Source of the DNA: a virus
Reading direction: 5' to 3' (one strand)
Virus record (IMG/VR): IMGVR_UViG_3300045015_000042
DNA: 55,001 bases
Within the stretch, counting starts at the first letter, position 1, and each line of letters opens with the position of its first letter. Below are positions 45,316 through 53,573 of the stretch, piece by piece. The position numbers and the translations under genes are program-made. The notes under the pieces are model-generated. The model was not told where the DNA came from. It worked only from the letters and a program-made list of their open reading frames with translations, and made no database searches.

Positions 45316-45383
45316 GACAACCTCCAATTCGGGTGGGGGAGACAACCCTAAACGCTCGGTTTAGGGTTGTCTCCGGTTTTGCG
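45316..45383 (-). promoter_or_regulatory. Conserved bipartite intergenic element, copy 1 (hairpin type).
   Basis: Box1 CGCAAAACCGGAGAC plus hairpin GAGACAACCCTAA.../...TTAGGGTTGTCTC, directly after a TGA stop. Confidence 0.6.
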
Positions 45384-45863
45384 TCAGTTTTTGTTGAGGT
45401 CAAAGTTCCGTTCGATGGTGTAGCGGTCGTGACCGAACGGCTCGAACGCGGCCTTCAGGCGAGCTTCGGCAGCCTTGAACCCTTCGATGGCAGCCGCGAG
45501 TTCGTCAATGGAGGCTTGGTTGCTGAGGACGGCGGCGCGGGCGATGTTCCGCTTGACGGCCGCGTCGAGGTGAGCCGGGTTGTACTCCTCGAAGAACTTC
45601 GCGTCAACGACGATGTTCTTGAGGGCGTAGGCGATGATCATGTCCGTTTTCTGGTCGCCGTTCTGGAAGCTGACGTAGGTCATGCTGGCGCGGGCGTGCG
45701 TCGTGACCTCGAAGCCGAGCGTTTCCGACATCTTCTTGAGGTAGGGCGCGGTCAGCCGCTTGCCGTCGTTGGCCTTGAAGTAGTCGAGAACGGCCTGCGG
45801 GCGTTCGGTGTGTTCGGTCGCGTAGAACACCGTGTTGAAGATCGTTTCGGAGGTCGTCGGCAT
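45384..45863 (-). CDS. Hypothetical protein, 159 aa.
   Basis: Track ORF. Confidence 0.55.
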   Translation of the reverse strand: MPTTSETIFNTVFYATEHTERPQAVLDYFKANDGKRLTAPYLKKMSETLGFEVTTHARASMTYVSFQNGDQKTDMIIAYALKNIVVDAKFFEEYNPAHLDAAVKRNIARAAVLSNQASIDELAAAIEGFKAAEARLKAAFEPFGHDRYTIERNFDLNKN

Positions 45864-45933
45864 CGCAAGCTCCAGTTCGGGATGGGCGAGACAACCCTAC
45901 ACACTCGGCGTAGGGTTGTCTCCGGTTTTGCGT
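45864..45933 (-). promoter_or_regulatory. Conserved bipartite intergenic element, copy 2 (hairpin type).
   Basis: TGA-ACGCAAAACCGGAGACAACCCTAC-N9-GTAGGGTTGTCTC, then a GGAG Shine-Dalgarno. Confidence 0.6.
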
Positions 45934-46161
45934 TCAGGAAATTGCGGGTTCGGGTGCGGCAACGGGCGAGGGCGCGGTGACCGAGTCGTACAGGTGCCGC
46001 AGGGCGATGCGGAGAACCTGACTGGCGTTCTTCTCGCCGTAGTGTTGTTTCATGTCCGCGAGCATCGCCTGCTCGTCGGTGGTGAGCCGCAGCCCGCGAG
46101 CTTGCCCATAGATGCCGTCGCCGGGCGTTGCGGCGGGACCGGAGGTGATGACGTTTTCCAT
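45934..46161 (-). CDS. Ribbon-helix-helix (CopG/Arc-like) DNA-binding protein (75 aa; RLTTDEQAMLADMKQHYGEKNASQVLRIALRHL).
   Basis: Beta-strand then helix-helix pattern typical of RHH. Confidence 0.45.
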   Translation of the reverse strand: MENVITSGPAATPGDGIYGQARGLRLTTDEQAMLADMKQHYGEKNASQVLRIALRHLYDSVTAPSPVAAPEPAIS

Positions 46162-46186
46162 AGTCCTGTGGGTTCGAGGTGGGGGT

Positions 46187-46363
46187 TCAGTAACCGAGGC
46201 ACGCGAGCATCGTGTCTTCGTCGTTCAGCGCGGCGTCGAGGTCGGCCGGGTTGCACTTCAGGATGTGGCACATTTCCAGTCGAACGGCCGGGCCGAGGTT
46301 GCCGAAGAGTTGCAGGTTCGCCATCGCGTTCGCGGCGGCGTTAACGATGTCCGTCGTGGTCAT
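46187..46363 (-). CDS. Small protein (58 aa; MTTTDIVNAAANAMANLQLFGNLGPAVRLEMCHILKCNPADLDAALNDEDTMLACLGY). Absent from the track because it is under 60 aa.
   Basis: ATG with a GAGGTG Shine-Dalgarno after element copy 3. Clean stop. Confidence 0.45.
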   Translation of the reverse strand: MTTTDIVNAAANAMANLQLFGNLGPAVRLEMCHILKCNPADLDAALNDEDTMLACLGY

Positions 46364-46432
46364 TCTGCACCTCGAATGGTTGGGGGAGACAACCCTACAA
46401 GGGCGGTGTAGGGTTGTCTCCGGTTTTGCGCA
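46364..46432 (-). promoter_or_regulatory. Conserved bipartite intergenic element, copy 3 (hairpin type).
   Basis: TGA-TGCGCAAAACCGGAGACAACCCTAC...GTAGGGTTGTCTC. Confidence 0.6.
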
Positions 46433-46539
46433 TCACCAACCGCGTTGTTTGCGGAGTTCGTCCGCTTCGGCCTTCCGCCGCTTCAGGTCGGTGACTTGCC
46501 GTGTGAGTACGAGTACGGTAATGCCGATGTTGCACTTGG

Positions 46540-51600: not shown

Positions 51601-51848
51601 TCGATCATCGGCGTTAACCTGACTTGCTCACCCGTGTTCAGCCGCACGAAGTTGTAGCGAAGCGTGCGGATGGTGCGTCGGCCGTTCAGGTCTTCGACCG
51701 GCCACAAGTACGGGTTGTTGTCGGTGTACCGGCCTCGCGTCTCGAACTTGGCGTTCGCCGCACGTCGGGCTTCGCGCCGCTCGTCTTCCGTCATCAGCTT
51801 CGGGTCGAAACCGAATGTGGAAACGTCGTCGGCGTTGATGCCCTGCAT
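51501..51848 (-). CDS. Hypothetical protein, 115 aa.
   Basis: Track ORF. Confidence 0.5.
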   Translation of the reverse strand: MQGINADDVSTFGFDPKLMTEDERREARRAANAKFETRGRYTDNNPYLWPVEDLNGRRTIRTLRYNFVRLNTGEQVRLTPMIDRPDAISETAKTEEYEHTKGPVKDWPKKTVTRK

Positions 51849-52138
51849 GTAATGACACCGTGAGTTTTGGTCTTGCCCTTCCCGGTCACCTCGCAGCCGA
51901 CGAACGCGACCAGCTTCGCCGTGTATCCTTCCAGCGTTGCCTTCTCTTGCGACATCTCCCGGCAGAACTCTTCGATCTGAAGCACGTCGGGAACGGCTTC
52001 CGGCACGTCGATCTTGAGCGTAAACCGCATCTTGATCGTCTGCCCGTCCACGATGCAGGTGCCGAAGTGGAGCAGCGTGCGGTACGTCCAGAGCGAGCAG
52101 TTCCGAGTCTCGAATCGCTTCAGTTCGGTCGCGGTCAT
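51794..52138 (-). CDS. Hypothetical protein (~114 aa, start MTATELKRF).
   Basis: Internal ATG with a TAAGGAG Shine-Dalgarno. Overlaps the next gene by ~55 nt. Confidence 0.45.
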   Translation of the reverse strand: MTATELKRFETRNCSLWTYRTLLHFGTCIVDGQTIKMRFTLKIDVPEAVPDVLQIEEFCREMSQEKATLEGYTAKLVAFVGCEVTGKGKTKTHGVITCRASTPTTFPHSVSTRS

Positions 52139-52247
52139 GGCGATCTCCTTAGATGCCACTACACACCCAACGTTATCGAGTCTCCGATTCTGCGAGAGCT
52201 TTTTCGGCTTGCTCGCGGCTCGCCCACGAACTGTAGGCGAAACCTGT
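52139..52247 (-). promoter_or_regulatory. Conserved bipartite intergenic element, copy 11 (B type; Box1 CGCAGAATCGGAGAC, Box2 GTGTGTAGTGGC).
   Basis: Read directly. Confidence 0.5.
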
Positions 52248-52544
52248 TCACACCGGGAAGTTCAGGGTGTTGCCCTTGAGTTGCCGGGCTTCGCGGGTCA
52301 TGAACGCCTTGATCGGGGCGACGGCCCGCTTCAGGTCGTTCTTGCTCGGATCGCCGTTGTTCTGGATCAGTTGCATGAGCAGGTTGGCCGACCGCACCGG
52401 AGCCTTCCAGTAGCACCAGCCGTCGCTCACCGCGTCCGCGAGGTCACGCAGGTCGGACAGCAGTTGGGTGGCCTGCGCCAGCAGCGGGTGGTTCGCGTGC
52501 TTCTGCTTGGCCGCGTCGATGTCCCAAGTGTTCATGAACAGCAC
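52248..52544 (-). CDS. Hypothetical protein (~98 aa; GTG start 7 nt after a GGAGAG Shine-Dalgarno, alternatively ATG at 52535). The track start ATG lies inside the element hairpin.
   Basis: Start choice by Shine-Dalgarno spacing. Confidence 0.45.
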   Translation of the reverse strand: MLFMNTWDIDAAKQKHANHPLLAQATQLLSDLRDLADAVSDGWCYWKAPVRSANLLMQLIQNNGDPSKNDLKRAVAPIKAFMTREARQLKGNTLNFPV

Positions 52545-52624
52545 TGTCGTCTCTCCGCAGGGTTGAAGTTTTCGAGCATCCGACATCCCTACACGCTCGG
52601 TGTAGGGATGTCTCCGGTTTTGCG
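52545..52624 (-). promoter_or_regulatory. Conserved bipartite intergenic element, copy 12 (hairpin type; GAGACATCCCTAC...GTAGGGATGTC).
   Basis: Read directly. Confidence 0.55.
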
Positions 52625-52843
52625 CTACGGCAACGTCACGGTTTGGAACGTCTCGCAGAACTCTTTCTCGCTGATGGTCGTCGTGCGGCCGAGGCTTCGC
52701 CCGTCGTTGACCGTGAACGAGATCATTTGGACGTTGGCGAACGATGTCGGGTTGCCGGGGTTCGCCAACGGTTCACGCCACGCGACGTAAACCGGGCCGG
52801 TCGGGTTTGCCTTGCGAACGACGTAGAATCGGGTTGCGTTCAT
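52625..52843 (-). CDS. Small protein (~72 aa, start MNATRFYVV).
   Basis: Internal ATG in an ATGA overlap with the upstream stop. Confidence 0.45.
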   Translation of the reverse strand: MNATRFYVVRKANPTGPVYVAWREPLANPGNPTSFANVQMISFTVNDGRSLGRTTTISEKEFCETFQTVTLP

Positions 52844-53496
52844 CGGGTGGCCTTGTATTGTTTGATTTCCTTCTTGGACAGCGCCCGCTTCTTGACCGCG
52901 ACCACCGCCTTGCCGTAAGCGTTGATCGCGTCGTACTCGCTCGCGGTGGCCTTCAGGAACGTGTCGTAGTTCCCGATGTCGTAGCCGTGGATGTCCTTCT
53001 TCGGGGTGTAGGGGGCGAACGTCACCGCGAACCACTGTTCGCCGCTCACGCCGATGGCGTCGTTCTGGCCGATGAACTCGACACGCAGCGTGCGGGCCGG
53101 CTTGACGACCTTCTTGAAGGGGATGCGGGCCAGCACGCCGTTCGCGTTGACGTACAGGCTGCCGGGGAACAGCTTCATCGGGCGGAACGCGCCTTGACCG
53201 TGGATGATGCCGTCGATGACGACCGTGTGCTGTTCCACGATGTTCTCGACGGCCTTGTCCGCGTGCAGACGTTCGAGGGAGTGCGGCGCGGTCATCTTGC
53301 AGAGGTCGGAGTACACGTCGTTCCAGTTGCGGCCGACGTGCGCCACGAGCCAGCGTTCGATGTTGTGGTACTCGCCGTAGACCCGCTTGCCGCCGCCGAC
53401 CCGCATCTTCTCGCCGCGCGGGGCGTCCTCATCGAACCGCACGTTCTTGGCCCGCTTGAAGTCGGGGCGGTACTTCTCGACGGTGGGGACGAACAT
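52840..53496 (-). CDS. Hypothetical protein (~218 aa, start MFVPTVEKY).
   Basis: Internal ATG with a CAAGGAG Shine-Dalgarno after element copy 13. Confidence 0.55.
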   Translation of the reverse strand: MFVPTVEKYRPDFKRAKNVRFDEDAPRGEKMRVGGGKRVYGEYHNIERWLVAHVGRNWNDVYSDLCKMTAPHSLERLHADKAVENIVEQHTVVIDGIIHGQGAFRPMKLFPGSLYVNANGVLARIPFKKVVKPARTLRVEFIGQNDAIGVSGEQWFAVTFAPYTPKKDIHGYDIGNYDTFLKATASEYDAINAYGKAVVAVKKRALSKKEIKQYKATR

Positions 53497-53573
53497 CGCT
53501 GCTCCTTGCTGTCGGTGTTGAGATGGGCGAGACAACCCTACACACTCGGCGTAGGGCAGTCTCCGGTTTTGCG
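53497..53573 (-). promoter_or_regulatory. Conserved bipartite intergenic element, copy 13 (hairpin type).
   Basis: TGA-CGCAAAACCGGAGACTGCCCTAC...GTGTAGGGTTGTCTC. Confidence 0.6.

Follow-up and report, generated by a model that had tools for sequence, protein, structure and literature searches.

A conserved two-box intergenic element in the mosaic small-gene block of a probable large uncultured phage: candidate internal promoters overlapped with RNA hairpins

What is the role of a short, strictly oriented sequence that recurs between one small gene and the next over many kilobases of viral DNA? The question is raised by a stretch of 55,001 nt from the virus record IMGVR_UViG_3300045015_000042 (hereafter the window, meaning the whole of this stretch), in which an array of small minus strand genes is punctuated by a bipartite element composed of two motifs, Box1 and Box2. 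An original prediction, made from the letters of the window alone, had reported thirteen copies between 45.3 and 53.6 kb. A repeated element is indeed present; it is strongly non-random and larger in extent than was seen at that time, although this particular range contains ten complete copies, one degenerate copy (49696) and one split copy (51591 with 51497) rather than thirteen. Comparison of the sequences leads us to propose, with moderate confidence, that the boxes, which lie among the small genes of a mosaic block and are overlapped by RNA hairpins, act as internal promoters of a class peculiar to this lineage.

Across the whole window, the pattern GGAGAC-N15-KTKTAG has 12 matches where 0.04 are expected, ten of them on the minus strand and two being plus strand echoes of perfect palindromes. 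Box1 (CGCARWWYCGGAGAC), allowing at most one mismatch, also has 12 matches, which lie between 45369 and 53573 and are confined to the minus strand, with weaker matches at 44588 and 38210 (2.55 are expected by chance at two mismatches). Box2 had been written as GTGTAGKGSTTGTC, which has one base too many and matches none of the copies; the true form, GTGTAGKGKTGTC, recovers them. The distance between the boxes, originally given as about 30 nt, is exact: with Box1 as anchor, 15 nt separate GGAGAC from GTGTAG in all complete window copies, whether or not they form a hairpin. A position weight matrix of Box1 and Box2 only, a check of the kind that had been suggested, identified 11 sites in the window with scores of 21 to 43, the best score in shuffled sequence being 8.7. 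No further scoring site was found on either strand of the remaining 44 kb, hence the element is restricted to one gene class.

Reading the minus strand confirmed that the array consists of small co-oriented genes, with a Shine-Dalgarno (SD) sequence and start codon after each copy. The element is not confined to the range of 45.3-53.6 kb, as had been thought: a complete copy lies outside it at 44588-44544, and at least nine more are found past the end of the window on contig L011, which represents the same genome, reaches 9.7 kb further and carries the continuation of the array. Nor do the copies always directly follow a stop codon. Most do so, the exceptions being those at 52194, 49696 and 44588, in which Box1 starts 53, 12 and about 270 nt from the stop, respectively.

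Information content is high at positions 1-4, 6-7, 10-15 and 29-42 of the element, whilst spacer positions 16-28 carry between 0.2 and 1.3 bits, the conserved portion being the hairpin arm of those copies in which Box2 lies in the 3' arm of a stem (type A). In copies lacking a hairpin (type B), the spacers are mutually unrelated, yet both boxes and the 15 nt spacing are retained, which bears out the suggestion that recognition is sequence-specific and not merely structural. The centres of the three conserved blocks fall at approximately 2.5, 13 and 33.5, giving separations of 10.5 and 20.5 bp, hence all three lie on one face of B-form DNA. At positions 6-7, only A or T is found (35 of 35 copies), with AA, AT and TT alternating within a single genome of 60% GC; this interchange fits a readout of DNA shape and does not fit the recognition of an RNA sequence. 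A fixed spacing around a free spacer is, furthermore, the behaviour of a two-site protein-DNA contact. The core intuition of the original prediction, that recognition is sequence-specific and probably transcriptional, was right.

Conservation of the boxes in related contigs

Related contigs were reached by protein searches with three genes of the array. The close relatives (L001, L002, L004-L006 and L007) share 57-89% protein identity with the window and have Box1 in the form CGCAGTTYGAGAGAC and Box2 in the form GT(A/G)TAGGGTTGTC; L007 alone carries 15 copies in 12.8 kb. These contigs are collinear but mosaic, runs of shared genes being broken by genome-specific ones. In the distant relatives (L018, L020 and L021; 45-50% identity), the motif is found at nearly every intergenic region of at least 45 nt, on the gene strand only. 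L018, located on a 586,525 bp NCBI contig and locally 50.6% GC, has about 32 copies reading TGA, then TTTTCCGAGAC-N15-GTGTAG; L021 (60.6% GC) has about 30 of CACGGTTTCCGAGAC-N15-GTGTAG, and L020 (64% GC) about 14 of CAWGGTTTCCGACAC-N15-GTGTAG. Exact-core copies with the 15 nt spacing number 23, 10 and 25 on the gene strand of L018, L020 and L021, respectively, and none on the opposite strand, where there is one stray match with a 14 nt spacing in L020.

The core of the family is thus an A/T tract at positions 5-8, C-S-GAGAC, N15 and (C)GTRTAG(K)G, an architecture found in at least five related lineages spanning 45-80% protein identity and 50-64% GC. The spacing is 15 nt in 45 of the 46 complete copies of the close set, and a looser pattern applied to eight loci gives 104 copies with 15 nt, 11 with 14 nt and eight with 16 nt. 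The GGAG of Box1 is not conserved, being AGAG or CGAG in relatives; hence the resemblance of the window Box1 to an SD sequence is incidental, and its interpretation as an SD-like or RegB-like site was rejected. Positions 9, 10 and 33 distinguish one genome from another: they are C, G and G in 19-20 of 20 copies in the genome of the window, but G, A and A in 14-15 of 15 copies in L007. Such signature bases, uniform within a genome and differing between genomes, suggest a specificity factor that co-evolves with its sites. Comparison with L007 also clarifies the copy at 51591, whose Box1 does lie within the open reading frame (ORF) 51501..51848, as reported; this had been considered a clue to how the elements spread, but the same site in L007 has an ordinary complete copy, hence that of the window is a disrupted one.

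Beyond these contigs, the element was not detected. Scans with two exact patterns, both specific to the window variant, gave no matches in 185,579 reference bacterial and archaeal species genomes, arguing against the alternative of a host repetitive extragenic palindromic (REP) sequence or miniature inverted-repeat transposable element (MITE), and none in the viral contigs of IMG/VR. In metagenomes, the first pattern had no matches and the second retrieved three small contigs carrying the same element. Megablast and blastn searches of GenBank phages with the region and the consensus produced no match, tblastn with the proteins of the block found nothing except the widespread L5 gp82 domain, and an IMG/VR search for related loci yielded no relatives. 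The element is specific to this phage lineage.

Hairpins and RNA genes at the elements

Across 123 copies, the longest stem has Box2 in its 3' arm in 58 (type A) and in its 5' arm, with a downstream partner, in 20 (type D, common in L021). It is formed by Box1 and the spacer in eight (type C, including window 49696 and L007 7472), lies entirely downstream of Box2 in another eight and is elsewhere in 13; the remaining 16 have no stem of at least 7 bp. Stems of at least 9 bp are present in 71 of the 123 copies, as against 17 of 123 after shuffling, and are missing from 52, the longest stems being mostly 9-16 bp. Seven perfect hairpins of 13 bp had been reported in the window; three pair at 13 of 13 positions, whilst the other four pair at 11-12 of 13.

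In an alignment of 23 type A copies, a 14-pair helix is 91.6% paired, a fraction biased by the selection of these copies for pairing; the compensated changes are unaffected by it. Three pairs of this helix have changes on both sides, in 13 cells (GACATCCC/GGGATGTC, GACACCCC/GGGGTGTC and CCCTGTAC/GTACAGGG), and in 500 shuffles the co-variation score never rose to the observed value. Sliding the helix by one to three columns reduces pairing to only 33-54%. At L007 7472, the equivalent of window 49696, the hairpin arms differ in sequence but the pairing is kept. Plain hairpins are also found in intergenic regions without boxes (L007:2042 and 9249; L011:5538, 6588 and 7659; window 48206), the equivalent of window 48206 in L007 having a similar hairpin, again without boxes. 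Conversely, one and the same junction, ahead of the 51794..52138 gene family, has a type B copy in the window (52194) and type A copies in L007 (4962) and L005 (633). The hairpins are hence independent of the boxes, in that they co-vary, occur in several registers and are present without boxes too, and the finding of Box2 unpaired, in the 3' arm or in the 5' arm speaks against a single mode of RNA recognition.

No consistent U-tract accompanies the internal hairpins on either strand. As real T-run terminators do exist in these contigs, the hairpins are probably not classical terminators; they are best read as probably defining or protecting the 3' ends of RNAs. A second hairpin family (GGAAGGGGACGCCC.CCCCTTCC then TCAC) was observed in L002 at 267-318 and 589-636, past stop codons that have no Box element.

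Elements precede RNA genes as well as protein coding ones. A tRNA-like gene, situated between an AAA ATPase gene and the next gene (Table 1), was missed both by ARAGORN, which called no tRNA in the window, and by a search of the whole window against Rfam at the gathering threshold with default filters, which returned no match; searched alone, it scores 34.5 bits against the Rfam tRNA family (gathering score 29). It has an acceptor stem of 7-8 bp, a perfect T-arm, the anticodon CGA, a 28 nt insertion in the anticodon loop just past the anticodon, and no encoded CCA. A nucleotidyltransferase of the CCA-adding type is also encoded in the window. Equivalents of the tRNA-like gene in L001 (around 776-888) and L020 (around 7125-7230) both have a complete element upstream, the acceptor stem beginning 5-6 nt past the TAG of Box2.

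A conserved structured RNA of about 125 nt lies between the orphan Box2 and the SD sequence of the gene at 51348. The 14 bp closing stem has different sequences in the window and in L007 (5731-5870), the pairing being kept through nine compensated pairs, and the interior, GGGGCGTGAGGAACG.CCC.GGTCC.AAACGGATAG, is highly conserved; further relatives stand behind elements in L018 (around 8690-8870) and L021 (9473-9551). The stems of the RNA genes in general start about 1-5 nt past TAG. Finally, a non-coding region of about 390 nt is conserved in L007 (11198-11595), with similar GGATTCATATAGC regions in L018 (14311 and 18944) and L021 (18674), and ends in a hairpin structure of about 75 nt, the closing stems of which, GTAGAGGCGGGG/CCCCGCCTCTAC in the window and CGGGGCGAGG/CCTCGCCCCG in L007, are different sequences that still pair. 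This region may be a large non-coding RNA. Neither it nor the 125 nt RNA has a match in Rfam.

Internal promoters and the alternatives

Any explanation must start from what the sequences show: the anatomy and spacing of the boxes, their strand bias and conservation across lineages, the co-variation of the hairpins, the lack of the motif outside these regions and the placing of the terminators. If the boxes are promoters, double-stranded DNA would be the form recognised, either by the holoenzyme of an RNA polymerase or by a factor recruiting one, which would co-evolve with the phage. The signal would comprise, in order, a short A/T tract, GAGAC, 15±1 non-conserved bases and GTRTAG(G/T)G. One copy would stand ahead of each transcription unit of one to three small genes, or of a small RNA gene, with transcription starting at the TAG of Box2 or a few bases beyond. 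The hairpins would constitute a second, RNA-level layer, placing a stem-loop past most stop codons of the block; as intergenic space is minimal, the stem would usually be made by free positions complementary to one fixed box. They would probably mark the 3' end of the upstream message or make it more stable, whilst RNAs started locally would, when Box2 is inside the stem, be without the complete hairpin. The repeated cassettes would also provide homology for the exchange of modules between relatives.

The position of the element, past the stop codon and hairpin and ahead of the start codon, fits that of a promoter. The distance from TAG to the start codon is 16-48 nt, with a mode of 30-36 nt, and the SD sequence never overlaps TAG, always lying at least 4 nt beyond it. 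Copies precede units of one to three genes, genes less than about 30 nt apart having no element between them, and also occur ahead of the tRNA-like gene and the conserved structured RNA.

Several points weigh against this explanation. We infer from the arrangement of these features that the boxes are promoters, and likewise where transcription starts, that a trans-acting factor exists and what the hairpins do. A scan for the sigma-70 consensus (TTGACA-N16-18-TATAAT-like) gave no gene strand match at any copy, and in about five copies (L021:1323, L018:4875 and L007:7472 among them) the SD sequence is 4-7 nt past TAG, hence the start site would have to be within a few bases of TAG and a sigma-70-like distance from -10 to start does not fit. 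The 436 nt of non-coding DNA ahead of the gene that opens the block (L011:1466) contain no element. Searches of approximately 50 proteins, from about 65 kb, against Pfam, PHROGs and PDB sequences revealed no sigma factor, RNA polymerase subunit, helix-turn-helix protein or other DNA-binding protein, and an AlphaFold model of the best-conserved protein of the block (241 aa, pLDDT 78) had no fold match in PDB. The uniformity of copies within a genome could be the result of gene conversion rather than of a co-evolving factor. Lastly, there is another candidate for a promoter: the motif TTCATAGCGTTGTACC, conserved even better than the boxes, is identical across lineages with only 45% protein identity and 50-64% GC, and in relatives is found just past T-run terminators, 25-60 nt upstream of a Box element, heading sub-blocks of roughly 4-11 kb and forming inverted pairs at block ends. 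It could be the operon promoter, the boxes then being internal signals of another kind; were that so, the boxes could still be a second temporal class of promoter, by analogy with the tandem early and middle promoters of T4.

A tentative variant of the promoter hypothesis, which we regard as possible but not likely, is that the boxes are gene-junction signals for a dedicated transcription apparatus in a clade of uncultured phages of very large size, represented by contigs of 125 kb and 586 kb. Nearly all small genes would then have a start signal of fixed geometry, with initiation occurring inside the hairpin of the upstream message, alongside an invariant motif at the level of the operon, TTCATAGCGTTGTACC, such that only RNAs initiated upstream would fold the complete hairpin. 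This organisation would be nearer to that of giant eukaryotic viruses, with their promoter motif and 'hairpin rule', than to classical phage operons. Alternatively, the signal may be read in RNA: an endoribonuclease or RNA-binding protein, of either the host or the phage, would recognise the boxes in long operon transcripts started at TTCATAGCGTTGTACC or another promoter and cut them into gene-sized messages with ends protected by the hairpins, by analogy with the T7 early region or REP-stabilised junctions. The elements are strictly intercistronic, within units delimited by T-run terminators and a candidate promoter motif, none precedes the opening gene of the block, the hairpins are both frequent and co-varying, and the structured RNAs begin right past Box2, as excision by cleavage predicts. 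Nevertheless, we consider it doubtful: two unstructured boxes at a fixed 15±1 nt around a free spacer are unusual for RNA recognition, the A/T interchange at positions 6-7 is not neutral in RNA, one mode of recognition is hard to define when Box2 is single-stranded, in the 3' arm or in the 5' arm depending on the copy, and the stems are too short for RNase III, with around 40% of copies having none of at least 9 bp. Rather less can be said for a regulator site, either a DNA-binding roadblock similar to a stoperator or a loading site for an elongation or antitermination factor, silencing or licensing the block, which seems unlikely. As with stoperators (PMC9283540), the elements are asymmetric, co-oriented with transcription, intergenic and multi-copy; in addition, the conserved blocks lie on one helix face, the signature bases are genome-specific and a separate candidate promoter motif is present. 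However, the element extends over 36-38 bp or so in three blocks, as against the single 13-mer of stoperators, the tight distance to the start codon would be needless for a roadblock, and the 65 kb examined revealed no gene for a repressor, an integrase or a helix-turn-helix protein.

The two further explanations assign no specific role in expression to the boxes. A selfish or recombinational repeat, whether similar to a MITE or REP sequence or to an attC-like cassette boundary, might account for the mosaic gene content with elements at the junctions, for remnants and half-copies (47058; 51591 with 51497), and for a 127 nt exact direct repeat around one gene module. Yet the architecture is kept down to 45% protein identity and across 50-64% GC, with strict orientation and a narrow range of distances to the start codon, none of the reference bacterial genomes scanned has a copy, no integrase or transposase is nearby, and, reading the sequence by eye, neither the attC core sites (RYYYAAC / GTTRRRY) nor extrahelical bases are present; this explanation is very unlikely. 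It appears more improbable still that only the hairpins are functional, as terminators or attenuators and maybe for the opposite strand, with the boxes being merely conserved arms. On the plus strand, the window type A copies do read as a hairpin followed by GGTTTTGCG, two being called terminator-like, and on the gene strand a terminator scan called one L011 copy, with a T-run, and none in the window. The hypothesis is largely refuted, however, by the type B copies, which retain boxes and spacing, and true T-run terminators are found at block borders only. Relatives have no T-run on either strand (Box1 being GTTCGAGAGAC or TTTCCGAGAC), and an antisense terminator was rejected, plus strand TTTT past the hairpin being limited to the window type A copies. 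A lineage-specific internal promoter remains our preferred explanation of the boxes.

Genomic setting and known systems

The entire block, comprising the array in the window and its continuation in L011, is about 19 kb long and has around 45 co-oriented small genes. T-run intrinsic terminators at L011:1047-1090 and at window 45062-45015 bracket the stop-adjacent copies, the copy at 44588 being one further copy just downstream of the latter; in the window, L011 and relatives alike, canonical terminators of this type occur at block borders only. The individual copies and associated features are listed in Table 1.

Table 1. Copies of the element and associated features; coordinates refer to the window unless a contig is named, and copies are described in gene orientation.
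Feature	Coordinates	Strand	Details
Complete copy, type A	53529..53573	-	12/13 pairs; Box1 CGCAAAACCGGAGAC, 15 nt, Box2 GTGTAGGGTTGTC; directly past TGA of gene 53574..53870; next ATG 53496
Complete copy, type A	52580..52624	-	Compensated arms GACATCCCTAC / GTAGGGATGTC; past TAG stop
Complete copy, type B (no hairpin)	52150..52194	-	Box2 GTGTAGTGGCATC; SD 8 nt past TAG
Split copy, Box1 alone	51577..51591	-	Within 3' end of ORF
Orphan Box2 of split copy	51483..51497	-	GCGTGTAGTGGTGG; past stop at 51501; conserved structured RNA next
Complete copy, type B	50460..50504	-	CGCAATTTCGGAGAC-15-GTGTAGTGGTGTC; past TAG stop
Degenerate copy, type C	49652..49699	-	Box1 CGCAATCTCGGAGAC; TTGTGG at Box2 position; own 15 bp hairpin from Box1 and spacer
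Complete copy, type B	48598..48642	-	Box2 GTGTAGGCTTGTA
Complete copy, type A	47584..47628	-	Box1 variant CGAAGAC
Complete copy, type A	46773..46817	-	Box2 TTGTAG
Complete copy, type A	46386..46430	-	Perfect palindrome, plus strand match too
Complete copy, type A	45888..45932	-	13/13 pairs
Complete copy, type A	45339..45383	-	Compensated pair CCCTAAAC / GTTTAGGG
Complete copy, type D	44544..44588	-	CACAATTTTGGAGAC-15-GTGTAGAGGCGGG; no adjoining stop codon; Box2 is 5' arm of 12 bp stem closing the structure of about 75 nt
Hairpin-only intergenic element, no boxes	48181..48206	-	GACAACCCGG TTCGCG CCGGGTTGTC
Possible Box1 remnant	47049..47058	-	CGCAACAACC; directly past TGA; read from sequence
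Canonical intrinsic terminator with T-run	45015..45062	-	AAGCCCGGA...TCCGGGCTTCTTTCGTTT; just beyond run of stop-adjacent copies
tRNA-like gene	54745-54847	-	
Conserved structured RNA	51352-51490	-	
Non-coding region of about 390 nt	44471-44862	-	
TTCATAGCGTTGTACC, only site in window	43443-43457	+	
TTCATAGCGTTGTACC sites, L018	754, 12199, 20116/20157		
TTCATAGCGTTGTACC sites, L020	3712/3732, 11546		
TTCATAGCGTTGTACC sites, L021	155, 12614, 16218, 19888/19921		
TTCATAGCGTTGTACC site, L007	12644	-	
CCA-adding-type nucleotidyltransferase	13598-15148		
Vault-like protein	6647-8977	+	776 aa

Some features of this region are observations in their own right. A 127 nt exact direct repeat (43824-43950 and 44958-45084), holding an intrinsic terminator, an SD sequence and the first nine codons of a gene (ATGGACATCAACGAAGCTAAGGCGAAC), flanks a 1,007 nt module composed of the non-coding region, the copy at 44588 and the gene 43951-44470, an arrangement that looks like a recent duplication or cassette insertion. 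Upstream of the copy at 48642 (window 48643-48821, minus strand), the frame from ATG 48821 reads through the apparent stop beside the element, whilst the frame that ends at the TGA beside the element has no start codon near its 5' end, suggesting a frameshift, a sequencing error or a decaying gene. A 252 nt unit is repeated three times in tandem at 1116-1919, with 73-77% identity, and is probably a within-protein repeat; no second repeat family was found in the non-coding DNA of window positions 1-43.5 kb. The ends of contigs at elements were considered as transcript ends, and this was rejected, as assemblies break at repeats.

Recognisable genes in the window include those encoding a nucleotidyltransferase similar to CCA-adding enzymes, an AAA ATPase, an ADP-ribosylglycohydrolase, a protein with a GmrSD N-terminal domain and an HNH-like protein; one gene of the array has a Phage_L5_gp82 domain. 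There is also a protein with a major vault protein shoulder domain (Pfam E = 8.7e-21) plus a vault repeat, the sole GenBank phage relatives of which, at 37-41% identity, are in uncultured megaphages of 462-735 kb. Proteins identical to those of the window are present on JGI contigs of up to 125,807 bp. On the basis of these contigs and the megaphage-type vault gene, the source is most likely a large uncultured phage. Megaphages LR756500 and LR756501, which share the vault-like gene, were rejected as carriers of the motif, their first 50 kb being 24-31% GC and without it.

The closest architecture among known systems is that of the PeSL and PmSL of T4-like phages, in which a stem-loop, a bipartite promoter, an SD sequence and a start codon are combined in hyperplastic regions associated with insertions and deletions (PMC4122927, PMC2839356). 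In both cases, a repeated intergenic stem-loop and bipartite motif, then an SD sequence and start codon, are located in a plastic, non-structural region, separating small ORFs without an assigned function, half or degraded copies exist, and gene content differs between close relatives at the cassettes; the layout found here is of the PeSL type, with putative promoter activity. However, the boxes resemble neither sigma-70 nor MotA motifs, the absence of the hexamers setting them apart from sigma-70 promoters and from PeSL in the strict sense. The stem-loop mostly overlaps the boxes instead of lying upstream, only L007:1258-1354, where a separate hairpin is just upstream of the boxes, having the PeSL order, and the variable hairpin register, genome-specific signature bases, phage lineage and GC content are further differences.

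Like the early promoters of phiKZ-like jumbo phages, which are used by the virion RNA polymerase and have conserved blocks at -10, -20 and -30, about one helical turn apart (PMC11512511), the boxes are phage-specific, do not follow the host consensus and stand ahead of many small genes. The phiKZ motifs are nevertheless AT-rich and experimentally mapped, whereas the boxes are candidate promoters, and no phiKZ-type polymerase subunit was found in the approximately 65 kb available here. The intergenic repeats of halovirus HF2 (58 bp and 29 bp classes) were conjectured to be promoters from sequence and confirmed as such with reporters (PMC8707807); they too are intergenic repeat classes conserved in sequence and position across a virus genus, but are AT-rich and of the archaeal TATA type, with neither a fixed bipartite spacing nor overlapping hairpins. 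The start-associated sequences (SAS) and extended SAS (ESAS) of Cluster K mycobacteriophages (PMC3203893) and the stoperators of those of Cluster A (PMC9283540) are, similarly, numerous short asymmetric gene-oriented repeats of the non-structural half of the genome, near stop or start codons, with a subcluster-specific consensus and not in the host genome. SAS, at 3-7 bp from the start codon, include the SD sequence, and RNA co-variation is not seen in the arms of ESAS, whilst stoperators are single 13-mers bound by repressor; here, by contrast, the SD sequence is separate, the start codon comes 16-48 nt past the boxes and co-variation is present in the hairpin arms. Orientation and intergenic position agree with stoperators, size and tripartite form do not, and the part read has no repressor gene.

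A different resemblance is to the promoters of extracytoplasmic function (ECF) sigma factors, such as those of Bacillus subtilis SigW (TGAAAC-N16-CGTATA). The boxes have a -35-like GA(G/A)AC, a -10-like CGT(G/A)TA and a nearly invariant spacer, but the spacer falls short of theirs by about 2 nt, searches revealed no ECF sigma gene and in some copies the SD sequence is too close for this geometry. Other likenesses did not hold. T7-type promoters for single-subunit RNA polymerases are one contiguous conserved block of approximately 17-23 bp, from -17 to +6, whereas the present element has two boxes split by 15 non-conserved bases with ±1 tolerated; no gene for such a polymerase was found in the 65 kb or so read of a contig of at least 125 kb. 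The hairpin is not a 5' stabilising structure, as it mostly spans the boxes themselves and varies in register. Sites for RNase III would be expected to have a stem of about 20 bp (two helical turns or so) in every case, unlike the shorter stems found here and the many copies without them. Intrinsic terminators differ in having a GC-rich hairpin with an immediate U-tract, called on the gene strand at one L011 copy only, and host REP sequences or MITEs in that the bacterial genomes scanned with window-type patterns contain no copies. In comparison with integron attC sites, the arms AGACAAC / GTTGTCT have, by eye, two mismatches each to the core, the stems are perfect and 33 nt in total rather than bulged and at least 57 nt, type B copies have no hairpin and no integrase was found.

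Regulatory cassettes in plastic regions of phage genomes are known; what is new is the motif with its geometry, the use of common bases by hairpin and boxes, and the clade of phages concerned. Should the boxes act at the RNA level, they would represent a new intercistronic processing signal. If they are promoters, they would point to a co-evolving specificity factor and to a compact design in which the same bases are used by a promoter and an RNA hairpin, and would carry the concept of mobile regulatory cassettes beyond T4-like phages, into an unrelated lineage rich in GC. The motif would then mark the true starts of dozens of tiny ORFs without known relatives, allow a regulon or temporal class to be defined straight from metagenomic sequence, and hence provide a sequence handle on gene expression in an uncultured, and probably very large, clade of phages.

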